The notes under the pieces were generated by a model. The model saw nothing but the letters and a program-made list of their open reading frames with translations. It was not told the origin of the DNA and ran no database searches. From an uncultured Gemmatimonadales bacterium (GTDB lineage: Bacteria > Gemmatimonadota > Gemmatimonadetes > Longimicrobiales > Gaopeijiaceae), in contig CAWELD010000010.1 in the NCBI GenBank assembly GCA_963809895.1, positions 384,001-448,000 of the forward strand: 64,000 nucleotides of DNA. The letters run 5' to 3'. Position numbers and translations under genes: made by a program. Shown here piece by piece: positions 12,364-22,173 of this stretch (position 1 is the first letter of the stretch; each line of letters starts with the position of its first letter).

Positions 12364-12483
12364 GAAGGTGCCGTGCGACTCACGGGTGTCGGGAGAGCGG
12401 GAGGCCGCACCGCGTACACGGCGCCTGTGAGCCGGTTCCGGCGTCGCCGGGAGGGCGCGGCGCCCGCGCTGCCGTGCCGCCGC

Positions 12484-13108
12484 TCAGCGTCGGCGTGTGG
12501 CGAGCACAGCCGCGCACGTCGTCGAGCGACAGGCCGGCGGCGTCCAGCGCCACGAGCAGGTGATAGACCAGATCCGCGGCCTCGGCCGCCGACTGGTCGT
12601 GCTCGCCCCGGGCCAGGGCGAGGATGAGCTCCGCCGTCTCCTCGCCCAGCTTCTTGAGGCGCAGGTTCTCGTCTTCCAGGAGCTGCACCGTGTAGCTGTT
12701 CTGGGCCCCGGAGCGGCCACGCTCGCGTATCACGGCGCCGATCTGGTCCAGCACATCGGTGGGGTCGAGCCCGACGTCGCCGAAGCAGCTGCCGTCACCG
12801 GTGTGGCATGCCGGTCCGGTGGGCCGGACCAGAGCGAGTACCGTGTCGCCGTCACAGTCGGCGTGCAGGGATACGACCTCCAGAAAGGAGCCGCTGGTGG
12901 CTCCCTTGTGCCAGAGCTCGCCACGGGAGCGAGACCAGAAGTGCATCTGGCCCCGCGCGAGCGACAGCCGCAGGGCGTCGAGGTTGGCCCACGCCACCAT
13001 GAGCACGCGGCCGCTGCCGGCGTCCTGGCAGACCACGGGCAGGAGGCCCCGGTCGTCGAAGCGCAGGTCGACCAGGGCGTCGCCGTCGCGAAGCGTGCGA
13101 TCGGTCAT
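12484..13108 (-). CDS. hisIE: Bifunctional phosphoribosyl-AMP cyclohydrolase / phosphoribosyl-ATP diphosphatase
   Basis: 'WSRSRGELWHKGATSG', 'DCDGD', 'GPACHTG' and 'KKLGEE'. A +1 shift near 12510 hides the probable end 'AVLATRRR*'. Confidence 0.92.
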
Positions 13109-13860
13109 CGAACCGGTACTCCCCAGCCCCGGAGGGCCGCCTTGAGGCTCGCCACGGTGGTGGTGGCGTCGTGCAGGATCCCGGCCACCAGCGCGGCCGA
13201 CGCATGGCCCTCGTCGAACGCAGCCCGCAGGTGGGCCGCCTCACCCGCGCCGCCGGACGCGACCACCGGCACCGACACGCGGTCCGATACGGCGCGCGTG
13301 AGCTCGAGGTCGTAGCCCGTGCGGGCGCCGTCGCGGTCGATGGAGGTGAGCAGGATCTCGCCGGCGCCACGCCGGGCGCACTCTTCGGCCCACGCCACCG
13401 CATCGAGTCCCGTGTCGGTGCGCCCGCCGTGGGTCCAGTGACGCCAGGAGCCGTGACCGTCGTCGGCCGCGTCGACGCTGGCGACGATGCACTGGCTCCC
13501 GAAGCGGCGGGCGCCTTCCGCCAGCAGATCGGGATCGCGCACGGCGGCGGTATTCACGCTGATCTTGTCGGCGCCGGCGCGCAGGAGCGGACCGATGTCG
13601 TCCACGGAGCGCACACCGCCTCCGACCGTCAGGGGCACGAACAGGACTTCGGCGGTGCGCTGCACGAGATCCAGCAGCGTGCCGCGCCCCTCGCGAGAGG
13701 CCGAGATGTCCAGGTACACGATCTCGTCAGCGCCTTCCGCCTCGTAGCGCGCCGCCAGCTCCACCGGATCACCGACGTCGCGGAGATCCTGGAAGCGCGT
13801 GCCCTTCACGACGCGGCCGTCTCGCACGTCGAGGCAGACCACCACCCTGGGCTTCAGCAC
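13105..13860 (-). CDS. hisF: Imidazole glycerol phosphate synthase, cyclase subunit
   Basis: '[15 protein letters not shown]', '[10 protein letters not shown]', 'LTSIDRDG' and 'VVASGGAG'. Confidence 0.96.
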
Positions 13861-13861
13861 G

Positions 13862-14401
13862 TCAGTCCTCCCAGGTGAGCCGCACCGAGCCCTTGGTGCT
13901 GAAGACGGTGTCCCCCTGTCGGAGCGCCTGGCGCAGCGCCAGACCCACGGCCTTGACGGCGGCCTCCACCACATGATGGCGGTCGCGCCCACGCTCCGCG
14001 GTCACGTGGAGGGTGGCGCCCAGGTTGGTCGCCAGGCTGTGGAGGAAGTGCTGGTAGAGGGCGCTGGGGAGGGTACCCTCGTACCACGGCCGGCCGCCCA
14101 CGTCGATGGCGGCGGACACCAGGGCGTCGTCCATGGGCACGACGGCCCACCCGTAGCGCTGCACCTCGGCGGGGATCTCGCGCGCCAACGCCAACCCCAG
14201 GGTGATGGCGACATCCTCCACCAGGTGATGGCGCAGGTCGCCCCGGGCCTCGAGCTCGAGCGTGAGCCCCGCGTAGCGCGCCAGGGTCTCGAGCATGTGG
14301 GTCAGGAAGGGCTCGTCGGTGGTGATCCGTGCGGGCCCGGCGCCGACCGTCACGGTCAGCGCGACGCGGGTTTCTCCCGTCTCGCGTATCAAGCGTGCCA
14401 T
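13862..14401 (-). CDS. hisB: Imidazoleglycerol-phosphate dehydratase (monofunctional)
   Basis: 'RETGETRV', 'FLTHML', 'HHLVED', 'PMDDAL', 'HHVVEA' and 'STKG'. Confidence 0.93.
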   Translation of the reverse strand: MARLIRETGETRVALTVTVGAGPARITTDEPFLTHMLETLARYAGLTLELEARGDLRHHLVEDVAITLGLALAREIPAEVQRYGWAVVPMDDALVSAAIDVGGRPWYEGTLPSALYQHFLHSLATNLGATLHVTAERGRDRHHVVEAAVKAVGLALRQALRQGDTVFSTKGSVRLTWED

Positions 14402-14423
14402 GATGCCTCGGGTTGAGCGCGAC

Positions 14424-15137
14424 TCATCCGCCCCAGCGGGCGGCCACGTCGTCGGGGTCGAGAACGGCGGTGTAGAGGGCCATGCCCAGGACGGCGCCAG
14501 CGGCGCCGGCCTGCTCCAGGGCCTCCAGGTCCGACGTGCGGGTGATTCCCCCGGAGATCCACACGGGGTGGGCAGAAGAGCCCACGACGGCGGACATGGC
14601 CGCCAGGTCGATGCCCTCCATGCGACCCTCCCGCGCCGCGTCGGTACAAAGAATGCCCGCCAGGGGCAGCTCGTCGAGGCCGGCCAGAAACTCCTCCACC
14701 GCCAGCGGCGACTTCTCGGTCCACCCCCGGCGCAGGACGCGCCCGTCGCGCACGTCGGCGGCCACCACGACTCGCTGCTGGTGACGCCTGGCCAGTGCTT
14801 CCAGCCAGGGACGGTCGTCCACGGCGCGGGTTCCCACCACGACCCGATCGGCGCCGGCGACCAGGAGCTCGGCGGCCCGGCCATCGTCGCGGATGCCTCC
14901 TCCCACCTGGGTGGTGGCCGGCGTGGCGGTGGCGACCCGGGCCACGAGGGCGCGGTTGTCTCCGGTTCCCAGCGCCGCGTCCAGGTCCACGACGTGCAGC
15001 GTGCGGAAGCCACGGTCCCACCAGTGGCGCGCCATGGCCACCGGGTCGGGAATCGAGACGGCCTCCTCTTCGGGGACTCCCCCGACCAGCTGCACGCAGC
15101 GACCTCCTTTCACGTCCACGGCGGGTGCGACGATCAT
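14424..15137 (-). CDS. hisA: ProFAR isomerase
   Basis: 'PAVDVKGGRCVQLVGG', 'LHVVDLDAA' and 'QVGGGIRD'. Confidence 0.94.
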   Translation of the reverse strand: MIVAPAVDVKGGRCVQLVGGVPEEEAVSIPDPVAMARHWWDRGFRTLHVVDLDAALGTGDNRALVARVATATPATTQVGGGIRDDGRAAELLVAGADRVVVGTRAVDDRPWLEALARRHQQRVVVAADVRDGRVLRRGWTEKSPLAVEEFLAGLDELPLAGILCTDAAREGRMEGIDLAAMSAVVGSSAHPVWISGGITRTSDLEALEQAGAAGAVLGMALYTAVLDPDDVAARWGG

Positions 15138-15754
15138 CGGACCCCTCCCTTGCCGGCAGAGGCCGCCAGGGCGAGGAAGTTCGCCAGCAGTCGGCGGCCC
15201 GGGCCGGAGCTCTTCTCCGGGTGAAACTGGACGCCCCAGGTGTTCCCGGAGCGCACCGACGCCACCAGGCGCCGGCCTTCGTACGTGCTCCACGCGATGA
15301 CGGTCGAGGGATCGTCGGGCCGGCACACGTACGAGTTCGCATAATAGGCCGGCATGGCCTCCACCCCCTGGAACAGCGGGTCGCCCGCCGTCTCCACCTC
15401 GTTCCATCCCATCTGGGGGACGCGCTTCGCCTCCAGGCGCTGGACCGATCCGGAAATGACGCCGATGCCGCGTCCCTCTCCCTCTTCGCTACGATCCATC
15501 AGGAGCTGCATGCCGAGACAGATGCCCAGGCACGGGAGCCCGCCCACCAGCGCCTGGCGGAGAGGGCTCGGGTCGGAGGGCAGCGCCTCCACGGCCGCCG
15601 AGAAGGCGCCGACGCCGGGCAGGACCATGGCGTCTGCGCCGTCCAGCGCCCGCCGCCAATCCGTGGTGACCACGACCTCGGCGCCGGCACCTTCCAGCCC
15701 CTTGCGGAGAGAGTGCAGGTTCCCGACCCCGTAGTCCAGCAACGCCACCTTCAC
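15134..15754 (-). CDS. hisH: Imidazole glycerol phosphate synthase, glutaminase subunit
   Basis: 'DYGVGNLHS', 'LPGVGAF', 'GICLGMQLL' and 'QFHPEKS'. Confidence 0.96.
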   Translation of the reverse strand: MKVALLDYGVGNLHSLRKGLEGAGAEVVVTTDWRRALDGADAMVLPGVGAFSAAVEALPSDPSPLRQALVGGLPCLGICLGMQLLMDRSEEGEGRGIGVISGSVQRLEAKRVPQMGWNEVETAGDPLFQGVEAMPAYYANSYVCRPDDPSTVIAWSTYEGRRLVASVRSGNTWGVQFHPEKSSGPGRRLLANFLALAASAGKGGVR

Positions 15755-16851
15755 GGCCGGCCTCCGGCGGGCTCATCGGCGGCCGCCAGCGTATCCAGCG
15801 CCCCCAGAAAGCGCTCCATGAGCGGCCAGGGACCCACGGTCACCCGAAAGGCGTCGCCCACGTCGGGGCAGCTCGGGAACGGGCGTACCGCCACTCCCTG
15901 GTCGCGAAGGGCGGACGTCCACGCCTGGGCCGAGCCCGACGCCACCGGAACCAGGACGAAGTTCGCCCGTGAGGGCAGGGGCCGGAGCCCGCGCCGGGCC
16001 AGCTCGCCGTGGAGCCGCTCCCGGTTCTCGATGCACTCGCCCACGGTTCGGACCACCCACCCGGACTCGTCACGCAGCGCCGCGCTGCCGGCGGCCTCGG
16101 CGATGCGGCTGACCTTGTAGGGACCGCGACTCTTCTCCGCCTCCAGGACCAGACCGGGATCGCCGATCCCGAAACCGACCCTCATTCCGGCCAGGCCGTA
16201 CGCCTTGGAGAGCGTGCGCACCACAAGCGCCCGCGGGTGCGCCAGAGCCGCCTCGACGGCGGAGACGCCGGCGAAATCGGCGTAGGCCTCGTCGAGGATC
16301 ACCACCGGACCGTCCTCGCCGGCGCGATCCAGAAGCTCGCGTATCCAGGCCAGCCCCGAGAGGTGGCCCGTGGGGTTGTTGGGGCGGCACACGTAGACCA
16401 GCACCGGATGGTCGGCCAGGAGGCGGCCCGGATCGTCCAGAGCGGCCGACCACGGCACCGGGCGCGCGCTACGCCCGTTCATGCCCGTGAGCGGCTCCAC
16501 CATGGAGAAGGTGGGTGCCGCGAAGCGCACCACGCCGCCGTGTTCCGCGACCGCCCGCCACGTCGAGTCCAACACGTCGTCGGACCCGCATCCGGTCGTG
16601 ACATGCTCGGGAGCGACGCCGAAGCGTGCGGCGGCGGCCTCGCGGAGCTCGTCGGCGTACAGCGACGGATAGCGCGCCAGCGCGTGGATGTCGGCGTCGC
16701 GCACCACGGACAGGGCGTCGGGATGCGCGCCCCACAGGTTGGTATTGTCACACAGATCCACCGGCACCGGTCGCCGGTCCGGCGTATACCGGGTGAGCGG
16801 CCGGTAGTCGGGTCTGGGGAAGCGGCCTTCGCCGGGCTGGTCGGTACTCAC
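15751..16851 (-). CDS. hisC: Histidinol-phosphate aminotransferase
   Basis: 'GCGSDD', 'PNNPTG', 'DEAYADF' and 'RTLSKAYGLAGMRVG'. Confidence 0.94.
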   Translation of the reverse strand: MSTDQPGEGRFPRPDYRPLTRYTPDRRPVPVDLCDNTNLWGAHPDALSVVRDADIHALARYPSLYADELREAAAARFGVAPEHVTTGCGSDDVLDSTWRAVAEHGGVVRFAAPTFSMVEPLTGMNGRSARPVPWSAALDDPGRLLADHPVLVYVCRPNNPTGHLSGLAWIRELLDRAGEDGPVVILDEAYADFAGVSAVEAALAHPRALVVRTLSKAYGLAGMRVGFGIGDPGLVLEAEKSRGPYKVSRIAEAAGSAALRDESGWVVRTVGECIENRERLHGELARRGLRPLPSRANFVLVPVASGSAQAWTSALRDQGVAVRPFPSCPDVGDAFRVTVGPWPLMERFLGALDTLAAADEPAGGRP

Positions 16852-18164
16852 GATTCCCCTCCGGAGGACTCCAGGGGGGGCCGGCGCAGCCGCGCGGCCG
16901 CCGCGTGGGCCGGCAGTCCCTCGGCTCCGGCCAGCGCCACCACGCCGTCCACCAGCGCGGCGGCGGCCGTGGGGGTGAGCTCCTGCCAGGTATAGGAGCG
17001 CATGAAGTCCAGCACCGACAGGCCGCTGAAGCTTCGACTCGTGCCCGCGGTGGGCAGCACGTGGTTGGCGCCGGTGAGATAGTCCCCGAACGCCACCGCC
17101 GACGGCTGCCCCAGGAACACGGTGCCGGCGGTGCGGACGGCCCCCAGGTGGATGCGCGGCTCCCGCGTGTAGAGCGCCAGATGCTCCGCGGCGTAGTCGT
17201 CGGCGAAGGCCAGCGCCTGATCCAGGTCTTCGGCCAGGAGGAGTGCCCCCGATCCGGCCAGCGCCTCCGCGACCACCGCCCTTCGGGGTGCCTGGTCGAG
17301 TTGTGCCGCCAGCGCCGTGCGCACCGAGGCCAGGAGGTCTGCCGAGGGCGTGACCAACGCCACGCATGCGTGGGGGTCGTGCTCGGCCTGGGCCACCAAC
17401 TCCGCCGCCACCAGCTCGGCGTCGGCGCTGTCGTCGGCCACCACCAGGACCTCGGACGGACCCGCCGGGGAATCGATGAGCACCTGGCCGGCGACCTGGC
17501 GCTTCGCCTCCAGGACCCAGCGGTTGCCCGGTCCCACCACGGCGGCGCAACGGGGCACGGAACGGGTCCCGAACGCCATGGCGGCAACGGCCCCGGCGCC
17601 CCCCAACGAGAAGAGGCGGGTCGCTCCGCTCAGGGCGGCGGCGGCCATGACCACCGCAGACGGGCGCCCGTCGGGACCGGGGGGTGAACAGACCACGATC
17701 TCCTCGACCCCCGCCGCGCGGGCGGGCACCGCTCCCATGAGCACCGACGAGGGATAGGCGGCCCGGCCCCCCGGCGCGTAGACGCCCACGGCGGGCAGCG
17801 GCAGGAACCGGCGGCCCAGCGTGAGCCCCGGCTCCACCTCCATCCGGAGCTCGCCGGGGAGCTGCGCGCGGTGGAAGGTCTCGATGTTGGCGGCGGCGCG
17901 CTCCAGGGCGCTGCGCACGGTTCGGGGGATCGACGTCAGTGCCTCGTCCCAGATCTCCTTGGGCACCTCCAGCTCCTGGAGCTCCACGTCGTCGAGCTCC
18001 CGGGCGAGGGCACGCAGCGCGTCGTCGCCCTGGTCGCGCACCCGTTCGATGATGGCCGCGGTGGCCGCGGCCGCTTCTCGCGTGTCGGCCGGCTGGCGCT
18101 CCAGGAGCATGCGCCGTTGGTCGGAGGTCAGCGCCGCCAGGGATCCCTCCACCGCGATCCTCAT
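16848..18164 (-). CDS. hisD: Histidinol dehydrogenase
   Basis: 'GVYAPGGRAAYPSSVLM', 'GPGNRWV', 'AGPSE', 'AQAEHD' and 'GDYLTGANHVLPT'. Confidence 0.96.
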   Translation of the reverse strand: MRIAVEGSLAALTSDQRRMLLERQPADTREAAAATAAIIERVRDQGDDALRALARELDDVELQELEVPKEIWDEALTSIPRTVRSALERAAANIETFHRAQLPGELRMEVEPGLTLGRRFLPLPAVGVYAPGGRAAYPSSVLMGAVPARAAGVEEIVVCSPPGPDGRPSAVVMAAAALSGATRLFSLGGAGAVAAMAFGTRSVPRCAAVVGPGNRWVLEAKRQVAGQVLIDSPAGPSEVLVVADDSADAELVAAELVAQAEHDPHACVALVTPSADLLASVRTALAAQLDQAPRRAVVAEALAGSGALLLAEDLDQALAFADDYAAEHLALYTREPRIHLGAVRTAGTVFLGQPSAVAFGDYLTGANHVLPTAGTSRSFSGLSVLDFMRSYTWQELTPTAAAALVDGVVALAGAEGLPAHAAAARLRRPPLESSGGES

Positions 18165-19024
18165 GGCATGAGTCTCTCGATGCGGGTCACCAGGATGCCC
18201 TCGGCGCCGAGGGCCTTGAGCCGCGCGATGGTCTGGAAGACCCGATCGGCGTCCACCACGGCGTGCGCGGCGACCCAGTCTCCCGAGTCCTCGACTTCGA
18301 CGATGGTGGGGCCGTTGATGCCCGGAAGGACCGCTTTCACCTCGGTGAGGCGGGCCCGGGGAACGTTGGCCATGAGGTAGCGCTTCGCCCGGGCGCGCAG
18401 CACGGACTCCAGCGCCGTCACGACCTCGGTCATGGTGTGCCGGCGCCCCTCGTCTTCCCATGCGGCGCGATTCGCCACCACGCGGGCGGTGGACTCCAGG
18501 ATGGTGGCGATCTCGCGGAGGTTGTTCACCCGCAGCGTGGATCCCGTGCTGACCAGATCCACGATGACGTCGGCCACGCCCAGATGAGGGGCGATCTCGG
18601 TGGCGCCGGTCACCGGCGCGATCTCGATGGACACGTCCATGGCGTCGAAGTAGGAGCGCGTCAGGTTCGGGAACGAGGTGGCGATGCGAGATCCGGGGGC
18701 GATATCGGCCGGATGCCGGATCCCGCTGTTGTCGGGCACCGCCACGGCCAGGTGACAGCGGCCGAACCCCAGGTCCAGCAGCTCCTTGACCTCACGTCCG
18801 TTCTCGGCCACCAGATCGGCCCCCGTGACCCCGAGGTCGGCGGCGCCGTCGGCCACGAACTCCGGTATGTCGGCGGCCCGCACGAAGATGGCCTGACACG
18901 TGCCTCCCAGCTCCGCGACCAGGGCGCGCTCGGAGCTGAACTCGGCTCTGAGGCCCGCCGTCTCGAACAGATCCAACGCCTTGTCGTGGAGGCGTCCCTT
19001 GTTCGGCAGTGCGATTCTCAACAC
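18161..19024 (-). CDS. hisG: ATP phosphoribosyltransferase (long form)
   Basis: 'LRIALPNKGRL', 'VRAADIP', 'DLVSTGSTL' and a C-terminal regulatory domain. Confidence 0.96.
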   Translation of the reverse strand: MLRIALPNKGRLHDKALDLFETAGLRAEFSSERALVAELGGTCQAIFVRAADIPEFVADGAADLGVTGADLVAENGREVKELLDLGFGRCHLAVAVPDNSGIRHPADIAPGSRIATSFPNLTRSYFDAMDVSIEIAPVTGATEIAPHLGVADVIVDLVSTGSTLRVNNLREIATILESTARVVANRAAWEDEGRRHTMTEVVTALESVLRARAKRYLMANVPRARLTEVKAVLPGINGPTIVEVEDSGDWVAAHAVVDADRVFQTIARLKALGAEGILVTRIERLMP

Positions 19025-19045
19025 GAAAATGTCCTCTTCGGAATG

Positions 19046-19085
19046 AAAAAACGCCGCGGCCCGTCCTTGTCGACGGGCCGCGGCG
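19046..19085 (-). terminator. Attenuator (intrinsic terminator) upstream of hisG
   Basis: CGCCGCGGCCCGTC-GACAAG-GACGGGCCGCGGCG-TTTTTT: a perfect 14-bp stem plus U6, about 20 nt before hisG. Confidence 0.92.
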
Positions 19086-19113
19086 CGGAGTGATGCGGGT
19101 GCTGGACGGCGTG

Positions 19114-19197
19114 CTAGGCGCGTACCCCCGACTCCACGGTGCCCGTTGGAGCGCCGTGATGGTGATGGGAATGCCGGAAGTGCCGGGTGCCGTTCAT
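19114..19197 (-). CDS. hisL: his operon leader peptide (27 aa)
   Basis: MNGTRHFRHSHHHHGAPTGTVESGVRA*, with 6 His codons, immediately upstream of the terminator. Confidence 0.88.
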   Translation of the reverse strand: MNGTRHFRHSHHHHGAPTGTVESGVRA

Positions 19198-19204
19198 GCC
19201 GGGA

Positions 19205-19232
19205 AAGGTAGCTCGGTGCCGGACGAGGTCAA
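19205..19232 (-). promoter_or_regulatory. Sigma70-type promoter of the his leader
   Basis: TTGACC-N16-TACCTT, with the -10 element 7 nt before the leader ATG. Confidence 0.65.
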
Positions 19233-19314
19233 GACGGGGCGCCACTCCCTCGTCACCCTTCCAGTAGCGCATTTCGCCGGAACTCCGCCGCCCGGCGGGG
19301 GTTCGGTCCGTGCT

Positions 19315-22173
19315 ATGGACGATGTCATCCGGATCCGCGGTGCGCGGCAGAACAACCTGAAGAACCTGGATCTGGACCTGCCCCGGCGGGCCCTCACCGT
19401 CGTCACGGGTCCATCGGGCTCGGGAAAGTCCTCGCTCGCTCTCGACACGCTCTTCGCCGAGGGGCAGCGCCGCTACGTGGAATCCCTCTCCACCTACGCC
19501 AAGCAGTTTCTCGAGCGCATGGAGAAGCCGCTGGTGGACGCGGTGGAAGGCATCGCGCCGGCGGTGGCCATCGAGCAGAAGAACCCCACCAAGTCCAGTC
19601 GCTCCACCGTGGGCACCGCCACGGAGGTCTACGACTACCTGCGCTTGCTGTGGGCCCGTGTCGGACACACGCACTGTCCCGAGTGCGACCGGCGCGTGAT
19701 CCCGGACACCGTGCCCGGCGCCGTGGACACCATTCTCGAGCTTCCGGAGGGCACGCGCTTCCAGGTGACCTTCCCGCTCCGGCACGGGGGCGAGATCACC
19801 CACGCGCAGCTCGTGGAGAACCTGCTGGCCATGGGTTTCGTGCGGGCCCTGGCCGACGGCCGGCCCGTGGACCTGGGAGAAGAAGACGCCGCCGACCCGG
19901 GCGCGCTGGGTCTCGATCTGACGCTGGCGTCGGAGCTCCTGGTGGTGGTGGACCGTCTCTCCATCGGCAGCGATGGGCTGGGCGACCGCCTCGCCGATTC
20001 GGTGCAGACCTGTTTCTCGGAAGGCGAGGGAGAGTGTGTCGTGGTGACCGCGGGCCGCCGGGGCGGGGGCCAGGACGAGGTGCCCGAACGGCTCACCTTC
20101 ACCGAGCACTTCCGCTGTCCCGAGCACCCGGACATCGACTTCCCGGAGCCGACACCGCAGCTGTTCTCGTTCAACAATCCCTACGGATCCTGCCCCACCT
20201 GTACCGGTTTCGGCGCGACCCTGGAGTACGATCTCGATCTCATCGTGCCCAATGCGACACGGTCGCTGGACGACGGCGCCGTGGATCCCTGGACCAAGCC
20301 CCGCTACAACAAGGAAAGGGATCGGCTGCGGGCCTTCGCCAACGAGCGCGGCGTGTCGCTCTACAAGCCCTGGACCGAGCTGCCGGAGGACTTCCGCGAG
20401 GCCGTGCTGCACGGGGGGCACGGCTTCAAGGGAGTGGTCCCCTTTCTCCGCAGTCGTGAGAAGAAGCGCTACAAGCAGTACATCCGCGTCTTCCTGCGTC
20501 AGTATCAGAGCCCGGTGACCTGTGCCACGTGCGGCGGCGCCCGCCTGCGCCCCGAGGCGCTCCGCATCCGGGTCGGCGGGCGGCGCATAGACGAAGTCTC
20601 CGATCTGCCTCTGGAGGATCTCGAGCGGTGGCTCGAGGAGCTCGAGCTGGAGGGTGCCGACGCCAGGGTTGCCGAGACCATTCTCCGTGAGCTGCGGGCC
20701 CGGGTGGGATTCCTGGTGAAGGTCGGACTGGGATACCTGACGCTGGCCCGTCAGACCCGCACGCTCTCGGGCGGCGAAGCCCAGCGCATCAACCTGGCGA
20801 ACTCGCTGGGCTCGTCGCTCGTCGACACGCTCTACGTGCTCGACGAGCCCACCGTGGGACTCCACCCCCGAGACACCGATGCGCTCCTCTCGCTCCTCAC
20901 GCGCCTCCGCGACGGCGGAAACACGGTCGTGGTCGTGGAGCACGACCCGGCGGCGCTCAGGATCGCGGACCACATCGTCGAGCTGGGGCCCGGCTCGGGT
21001 GAGCGCGGGGGGGCGGTGGTGTTCGAGGGCACCCCCGATGCCCTGGCCGCGGCCGACACCGTCACCGGCAACTACCTGTCCGGGCGCCGGCCCATCGCCG
21101 TGCCGGAGCGTCGGCGCCCGGTGAGTGGGCCGTGGCTCAACCTGCGCGGTGCCCGCCTGCACAACGTGGACGAGGTCGACCTGGAGATCCCCCTGGGCAC
21201 CCTCACGGTGGTCACGGGGGTCTCGGGTTCGGGAAAGAGCACGCTGGTGCACGACGTTCTGTACCGAGCCCTGGAGAAGGAGTTGGGCGGCGGCGAGACG
21301 TCGGCGAAAGAGCACCTGGGTGAAGCCGTGGGTGCCTACGCCGAGCTCGAGGGCGTGTCACGGCTGACGGAAGTGGTTCTCGTGGACCAGAGCCCCATCG
21401 GCCGCACGCCCCGCTCGAACCCGGTGACCTACATCAAGGCATGGGACGAAGTGAGGCGCATCTTCGCCGATCAGCCCCTGTCCCGGCAGCGCAAGTACGA
21501 TCCCGGTACGTTCTCGTTCAACACCAGTGGCGGCCGCTGTGAGGCGTGCAAGGGTGCGGGCCAGGTGGAGATCGAGATGATCTTCATGGCCGACGTGTAC
21601 GTGCCCTGCGACGTGTGCCGGGGCACCCGCTACAAGCCCGAGACGCTGGAGGTGACCTACCGGGGTCGCAACATCGCCCAGGTGCTCGAGCTCACCGTCG
21701 ACGAGGCGATTCGCTTCTTCCTCAAGGAAGACCGCCTGGGGCAGATCCTCTGGCAGCTCCAGCAGGTGGGACTGGGGTATCTGCGCCTCGGCCAGCCGGC
21801 GCCCACGCTGTCGGGGGGTGAGGCACAGCGCCTGAAGATCGCCCGGGAGCTCGCCGGCGCTTCGGGGCGCAAGGGACGCAAGCTCTACCTCCTGGACGAG
21901 CCCACCACCGGCCTCGCCGGCGAGGACGTCAAGAAGCTCCTCAACGTCCTCGATCGCCTCGTGGAGGCAGGAAACACCGTCGTGGTCATCGAGCACAACC
22001 TCGATCTCATCAAGACCGCCGACTGGGTGGTGGATCTCGGCCCGGGAGCCGGCGTGCGCGGAGGGCGGATCGTCGCAGCGGGCCGCCCCGAAGAGGTCGC
22101 CGCCGTACCCGAGAGCGCGACGGGGCGCTACCTGAGAGAAGTCCTTTCCAACGGAGTCGCAGGGGCGGGCTGA
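19315..22173 (+). CDS. uvrA: Excinuclease ABC subunit A
   Basis: 'IRGARQNNLKN', two Walker A motifs (GPSGSGKS, GVSGSGKS), two 'LSGGEAQR' signatures, zinc fingers and 'PIGRTPRSNP'. Confidence 0.96.
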   Translation: MDDVIRIRGARQNNLKNLDLDLPRRALTVVTGPSGSGKSSLALDTLFAEGQRRYVESLSTYAKQFLERMEKPLVDAVEGIAPAVAIEQKNPTKSSRSTVGTATEVYDYLRLLWARVGHTHCPECDRRVIPDTVPGAVDTILELPEGTRFQVTFPLRHGGEITHAQLVENLLAMGFVRALADGRPVDLGEEDAADPGALGLDLTLASELLVVVDRLSIGSDGLGDRLADSVQTCFSEGEGECVVVTAGRRGGGQDEVPERLTFTEHFRCPEHPDIDFPEPTPQLFSFNNPYGSCPTCTGFGATLEYDLDLIVPNATRSLDDGAVDPWTKPRYNKERDRLRAFANERGVSLYKPWTELPEDFREAVLHGGHGFKGVVPFLRSREKKRYKQYIRVFLRQYQSPVTCATCGGARLRPEALRIRVGGRRIDEVSDLPLEDLERWLEELELEGADARVAETILRELRARVGFLVKVGLGYLTLARQTRTLSGGEAQRINLANSLGSSLVDTLYVLDEPTVGLHPRDTDALLSLLTRLRDGGNTVVVVEHDPAALRIADHIVELGPGSGERGGAVVFEGTPDALAAADTVTGNYLSGRRPIAVPERRRPVSGPWLNLRGARLHNVDEVDLEIPLGTLTVVTGVSGSGKSTLVHDVLYRALEKELGGGETSAKEHLGEAVGAYAELEGVSRLTEVVLVDQSPIGRTPRSNPVTYIKAWDEVRRIFADQPLSRQRKYDPGTFSFNTSGGRCEACKGAGQVEIEMIFMADVYVPCDVCRGTRYKPETLEVTYRGRNIAQVLELTVDEAIRFFLKEDRLGQILWQLQQVGLGYLRLGQPAPTLSGGEAQRLKIARELAGASGRKGRKLYLLDEPTTGLAGEDVKKLLNVLDRLVEAGNTVVVIEHNLDLIKTADWVVDLGPGAGVRGGRIVAAGRPEEVAAVPESATGRYLREVLSNGVAGAG

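Follow-up and report, generated by a model that had tools for sequence, protein, structure and literature searches.

The closest described system is hisL, found in E. coli, Salmonella and other Gammaproteobacteria and catalogued as Rfam family RF00514, in which a short ORF with a run of His codons and alternative terminator and antiterminator hairpins stand before an operon that opens with hisG and specifies the complete pathway. The element described here, from a contig of an uncultured Gemmatimonadales bacterium, shares all of these features. The enterobacterial his leader forms a longer series of hairpins, where the Gemmatimonadota leader has three competing pairings, 1:2, 2:3 and 3:4. Outside the hisL family, the accessible part of PMC9413887 describes his RNA attenuators in Gammaproteobacteria and also candidates in three Firmicutes lineages (the B. 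cereus group, Peptostreptococcaceae and Erysipelotrichales) which RF00514 does not match. These candidates are comparative-genomics predictions from another phylum, and by description, the level at which they were compared with the Gemmatimonadota leader, they share its His-rich peptide, terminator and antiterminator; that part of PMC9413887 reports no leaderless architecture for them. The available portions of PMC2965389 and PMC4833913 mention His leader peptides for Gammaproteobacteria, Bacillus and Clostridium only.

Attenuators of the leaderless leader-peptide type have precedents in Actinobacteria, for other amino acids. Leaderless polycysteine small ORFs of mycobacteria were shown experimentally to attenuate, acting on translation (10.1101/834739, accessible part); one of them, Ms5788A, sequesters a Shine-Dalgarno (SD) sequence, whereas at our locus a terminator with a U-tract indicates transcriptional control. 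In C. glutamicum, leader peptides precede ilvB, trp, leuA and aroF, and Morbach 2000 is cited for formation of the ilvB leader peptide without a ribosome-binding site (RBS) (excerpts of PMC4046766), while the his genes use a T-box-type leader (excerpt of PMC3896937). The locus analysed here has in common with these actinobacterial attenuators, as far as the excerpts describe them, leader translation without an RBS or from leaderless RNA, but concerns His and belongs to another phylum.

The window, the whole stretch of 64,000 nucleotides that was analysed, holds the element on its minus strand (Table 1). An Rfam 15 cmscan of positions 18900–19400 at E values up to 10 gave 11 chance-level rows, driven by the terminator hairpin, with neither His_leader (RF00514) nor T-box among them, and a search through the main text of openly accessible articles found no his attenuator described for Gemmatimonadota. 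Both results agree with the preliminary description, whose author knew of no report from this lineage. Compared with hisL, the leader stands apart by phylum, by the lack of an RF00514 match, by the lack of an SD sequence and by a start that is predicted to be leaderless. Its His residues are also interspersed (6 of 27, four of them consecutive), whereas hisL has seven consecutive His in an 18-residue peptide, according to the part of the source available.

Table 1. Features of the predicted histidine attenuator and the operon behind it (positions in the window)
Feature	Position	Strand	Remarks
-35 hexamer TTGACC	19227..19232	minus	Predicted leader promoter; 16-nt spacer to -10
-10 hexamer TACCTT	19205..19210	minus	Predicted; 7 nt (TCCCGGC) to ATG
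Leader ORF MNGTRHFRHSHHHHGAPTGTVESGVRA, 27 codons plus TAG	19114..19197	minus	ATG 19197-19195, TAG 19116-19114
His codons H6, H9 and run H11-H14 (19167-19156)	19156..19182	minus	Putative regulatory codons
Hairpin 1:2	19135..19158	minus	Protector, possibly pause hairpin; 5' arm opens at last His codon
Region 1	19158-19149	minus	5' arm of hairpin 1:2
Region 2, antiterminator 5' strand	19131..19146	minus	Base-by-base pairing check, covariation, folding
Region 3, antiterminator 3' strand	19073..19091	minus	Covers 9 of 15 positions of terminator 5' arm
Intrinsic terminator	19046..19086	minus	15-bp stem 19086-19051, 6-nt loop, T6 at 19051-19046
hisG RBS GAAGAGGA	19039-19032	minus	Precedes hisG GTG
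hisG (ATP phosphoribosyltransferase, long form)	18161..19024	minus	GTG at 19024; Pfam HisG, HisG_C
hisD, hisC, hisH, hisA, hisB, hisF, hisIE	12380..18161	minus	ORF-list bounds, starts approximate

With seven more his genes behind hisG, the operon is complete (hisGDCHABFIE), and the element stands at its head. The downstream products match Pfam families Histidinol_dh, Aminotran_1_2, GATase, His_biosynth (twice), IGPD, and PRA-CH with PRA-PH. The divergent neighbour is uvrA, on the plus strand with its ATG at 19315. Among public reads, a single RNA run (X8) matches the locus, with one 154-nt contig inside hisG, and metagenomes contain the locus and close variants of it, as seen in DNA contigs of X1 and X2.

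A minus-strand reading placed the promoter, ATG, ORF, hairpin, antiterminator, terminator and hisG in the order and at the positions first proposed. The base-by-base check found nine standard pairs out of ten in hairpin 1:2, with one C-A mismatch, and bore out the claim of a protector hairpin that opens at the last His codon; no SD-like motif was found 5' of the leader ATG, also as claimed. Fourteen pairs, one of them G-U, make up the two helices of the antiterminator. For the terminator, the position, the U6 and the mutual exclusivity with the antiterminator all held, but the stem described as 14 bp has 15 pairs when the closing G-U is counted; 13 of these are G-C, and its free energy is -36.7 kcal/mol. 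A terminator scan found one terminator at the locus against 0.4 in shuffled sequences. Folded as a whole, the 182-nt leader reached -81.3 kcal/mol (z = -4.18), which none of 200 shuffles equalled, and hairpin 1:2 was present in both the minimum free energy (MFE) and the centroid fold. When the transcript was cut before the 3' arm of the terminator (region 4), the MFE fold was exactly the proposed antiterminator.

The preliminary description had pointed to His-rich upstream ORFs and covarying stems before hisG in related genomes as a check on its reading, and both were found. We compared 110 hisG loci, 30 from related genomes and 80 from species-representative records, with record titles mostly reading Longimicrobiales, Gemmatimonadales, Gemmatimonadaceae or Gemmatimonadota; the closest relative locus, labelled Longimicrobiales, has 80% HisG identity. 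In 102 of the 110 loci a His-rich ORF, defined by 4 or more His in 9 residues, is found within 450 nt 5' of hisG; three of the eight others hold merely 71–96 nt of upstream DNA. After removal of five duplicate loci and two without an ATG, 95 non-redundant leaders remained, with a median peptide of 27 residues, 6 His and 13 codons past the last His. Three or more consecutive His occur in 81 of the 95, and a strong hairpin followed by a T-run occurs in 93, beginning 17–46 nt (median 27) past the stop codon. The element is always directly 5' of hisG and on the same strand.

A covariance model built from 18 close relatives (R1) was searched against 100 of these loci, which excluded the five duplicates, the incomplete L003, L009, L081 and L100, and L110. 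It matched 91 of the 100 at E values up to 0.01; eight extra rows were reverse-strand matches to the palindromic terminator. Seven of the nine misses still have a His ORF and a terminator as judged by script, hence L026 and L098 are the sole loci among the 100 with neither an R1 match nor this combination. By depositors' MAG labels, the leader is also present in Acidobacteriota (L074, L080, L083, L093), Thermoanaerobaculia (L086) and Candidatus Eisenbacteria (L090). The family is thus confirmed for Gemmatimonadota and also seen in MAGs that bear two or three further phylum labels.

Searched phylum-wide, with the best 20 of thousands of first-look candidates scored per genome, R1 matched at least 6 of 151 genomes. 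This tally is no measure of absence, because two of three genomes of genus g19 (same family) that R1 had missed have a His-rich ORF, promoter and terminator before hisG. The His-rich ORFs of these two loci, L144 and L146, are MNTRTHTPTHHHHGHREAVV and MSIFVRTATHHSHGHPREAAA; each has a TTGACA promoter and a terminator. Their hisG is 30–32% identical to that of the window and the promoter geometry of the leader is the same, which points to convergence or to a deeply diverged branch of the leader family. In genus g6, from the same bacterial family (L026, L143), neither a His leader nor a terminator stands ahead of hisG, so the attenuator is lost or was never gained there; its hisG sits directly behind a gene ending ...ISGFDRIIPVA.... 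Given the g19 leaders and the g6 operons that have no leader, the design is widespread but not universal, and R1 captures part of it.

The pairings of both states were examined across these relatives. In the MAFFT alignment of the 18 close relatives, 91.7% of antiterminator cells are paired against 34–51% with slid partners, and both sides have changed in 19 cells, where shuffles give 7.8; no shuffle of 500 matched the observed pairing, number of changed cells or covariation score. Covarying pairs include one read as AU:11 / GC:4 / GU:2 and another as AU:7 / GC:5. RNAalifold on the same alignment independently predicts hairpin 1:2 and the terminator. For the terminated state, 88.4% of cells are paired against 37–52% with slid partners, with the paired percentage reached by 18 of 500 shuffles and the covariation score by 98 of 500; covariation is weak here because the sequences of hairpin 1:2 and the terminator vary little among these relatives. 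Across 84 leaders, in an alignment which was fitted to the R1 structure and hence favours it, pairing in the terminated state reaches 89.4%, and both sides have changed in 186 cells, where shuffles give 64 (0 of 500 shuffles as high). Hairpin 1:2 is paired in 86.7% of cells in the close relatives and 86.8% in the 84 leaders, where one of its pairs reads CG:30 / GC:24.

Mapped onto the same 84 rows, the antiterminator of our leader is 75.5% paired, with 92.2% in its GGGC:GCCC core and 50% in the distal helix, so the outer register differs between clades. We also folded every transcript over the stretch that begins at the 1:2 loop and ends immediately ahead of region 4. In 80 of 83 leaders the region-2 zone pairs with six or more of the 12 core nucleotides of the terminator arm, with 8.96 core nucleotides paired against 7.14 when region 2 was shuffled, and a mean energy of -41.3 against -33.2 kcal/mol (z = -2.7). 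This result is supportive but weak, since a shuffled region-2 zone pairs nearly as much in such G+C-rich RNA.

Among the coding features of the leader, the His codons are conserved best, and in every case they adjoin region 1. Within the genus the peptide tail HG.PTG.VE.GVRA is kept, but it differs between clades, where the RNA pairings are retained, and a function of the tail as a peptide was rejected for this reason. The tail and the very strong terminator could also be read as an independent small gene, for example for a His-rich metal-binding peptide, with a constitutive terminator that insulates hisG from the divergent uvrA region and no switch at all. That reading is very improbable, given the retained pairings, the covariation of the antiterminator and the invariable position directly 5' of hisG on its strand; furthermore, a constitutive terminator of this stability would silence an essential operon that has no other visible promoter. 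Still less probable is antitermination in which an RNA-binding protein, or uncharged tRNA in a T-box-like manner, acts on the hairpins and the His codons are incidental. Histidine T-boxes do control his genes in Firmicutes and Actinobacteria, but neither a T-box nor any other Rfam family rose above chance level in the scan at E values up to 10, the leader is merely about 150 nt long, and the conserved His codons keep their place against region 1. Translational attenuation by masking of the hisG RBS was rejected as the main mode, as the hairpins do not include the RBS and anything from 11 to 165 nt separates the T-run from hisG.

Codon choice in the leaders is skewed, with CAT making up 289 of 591 His codons (0.49) against 51 of 301 (0.17) in hisG of the same loci; CAT and CAC alternate in the leader of the window. 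Slower decoding by wobble, or a need to avoid runs of C, may explain this excess.

In summary, His codons, which encode the end product, are enriched in a short ORF before the biosynthetic operon, an intrinsic terminator lies between this ORF and hisG, and an antiterminator excludes the terminator while region 1 begins at the last His codon, although support for the antiterminator is weaker in the wider family. The element is thus very probably a His leader-peptide transcription attenuator, judging by its sequence. The earlier reading of ribosome-stalling attenuation is supported by the conserved His-rich ORF, the terminator with its T-run and the covarying antiterminator, and we put at roughly 0.8 the probability that these parts act as a ribosome-stalling attenuator before hisGDCHABFIE, with leaderless translation of the leader predicted.

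The order of events that we infer, from the transcription start through leader translation and stalling to histidine dependence, would be as follows. Transcription would begin at 19197, and a ribosome would load directly onto the 5'-terminal AUG. With His-tRNA plentiful, the ribosome would pass the His codons and region 1 would pair with region 2, leaving region 3 free for region 4, and the terminator so formed would release the transcript about 22 nt before hisG. With charged His-tRNA scarce, the ribosome would stall with H11-H14 in its A site and its footprint over region 1, so that region 2 could pair with region 3, block the terminator and allow read-through into the his operon. Without any translation, hairpin 1:2 would form and termination would be the default. 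This geometry agrees with classical attenuation. In one respect the leader differs from the trp textbook case, as its stop codon lies 15 nt beyond region 2, hence a terminating ribosome would leave region 2 unmasked and the choice of fold would rest on refolding of 1:2 and on timing or kinetics.

Several observations bear on where this transcript starts. In 80 of the 95 leaders TTGAC begins 34–38 nt 5' of the ATG, and a TTGAC-anchored consensus (n = 82) has a 17-nt spacer followed by T-A-(G/C)-C-T-T, with the last T in 79 and the A in 56 of the 82. The base at -1 of the ATG is C in 82 of 94 leaders, which gives a pyrimidine-purine start dinucleotide. An SD-like motif precedes only 6 of 95 leader ATGs compared with 39 of 95 hisG starts. 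As the promoter distance is fixed, -1 is mostly C and SD motifs are almost lacking, the leader transcript is probably leaderless, with its predicted start at the A of the ATG.

The same His-sensing attenuator could instead start upstream of the ATG, at a different promoter or a few bases earlier, and be translated independently of an SD from a short 5' UTR. The gap between -10 and ATG, 5 to 9 nt among relatives, would allow a start 1–2 nt before the A in some of them, and a generic sigma-70 scan called no promoter at the leader, as its -10 (TACCTT) is non-canonical. We consider this version unlikely in view of the fixed TTGAC distance, the C-A at -1/+1 and the rarity of SD-like motifs. The genome as a whole also argues against it, as among 107 TTGAC-N17-19-TAnnnT sites an ATG follows 5–8 nt past the -10 in 17 cases where about 4 are expected, an approximately 4-fold enrichment over a baseline of about 1 per offset at 10–40 nt past the -10. 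In 12 of the 17 cases the ATG begins an ORF of 100 codons or more. This enrichment suggests that leaderless mRNAs are common in the organism, and a table in the accessible part of PMC10783764 gives a value of 22 for Gemmatimonadetes, which we take to be a low share of SD-led genes.

Short ATG ORFs with at least 5 His in 9 residues are rare, with five distinct cases genome-wide (5.3 Mb, six frames), and of these the hisG leader alone was also returned by a separate promoter and terminator scan. This strict scan, which required promoter-ATG geometry, a short ORF and a terminator, returned three sites including the hisG leader. Another is an F/W/Y attenuator of the same design on the minus strand of G000:C3, with its ATG at 907649 (locus L111, about 3650-3480, minus), where TTGACA-N17-GAACCT-N7-ATG opens MTPHASTFTRRRHFGFWYYGYPTGAGSPRVL and is followed by a terminator (-35.5 kcal/mol) with T7. 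The gene past it encodes a DAHP synthase (Pfam DAHP_synth_1 with a ferredoxin-like domain), and an F/W/Y-rich ORF with a TTGAC promoter was found by a crude filter before 16 of 26 orthologous DAHP synthase genes (at least 68% identity, full upstream DNA). The aroF leader of C. glutamicum with F-Y-F is a parallel, as described in the available text on that organism. The third site, MPSILSNRPNTNRRPPGVGGDTGVR, lies on the plus strand of G000:C3 with its ATG at 885958 (locus L112) and a terminator of -19.9 kcal/mol, and its ORF has no obvious regulatory amino-acid run.

That the genome also has a matching leader for aromatic amino acids suggests a style of regulation that spans the lineage. Tentatively, and at slightly under even odds in our estimate, Gemmatimonadota and neighbouring little-studied phyla may share leaderless attenuators on amino-acid operons, in which a 70S ribosome would load onto the 5'-terminal AUG as it leaves the polymerase, so that the first ribosome would be coupled to transcription without an SD. 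The His and F/W/Y leaders would both be members, and the His leader would be an old RNA family that travels with hisG.

The element thus appears, on the evidence of conservation and covariation, to be a conserved and uncatalogued His attenuator whose antiterminator switch is well supported and whose start is probably leaderless. Its mechanism is a textbook one, but leader-peptide attenuation of his genes would be extended to Gemmatimonadota, where we found no report of it. Since R1 matches most of the related hisG loci, it could seed an Rfam family, and annotation would improve, as ordinary gene callers do not reach down to ORFs of 27 codons. If the leader is truly leaderless, the ribosome that acts as sensor has to bind the RNA right at the 5' terminus, and the leader would then allow the coupling of transcription and translation without an SD to be studied in a clean natural setting.
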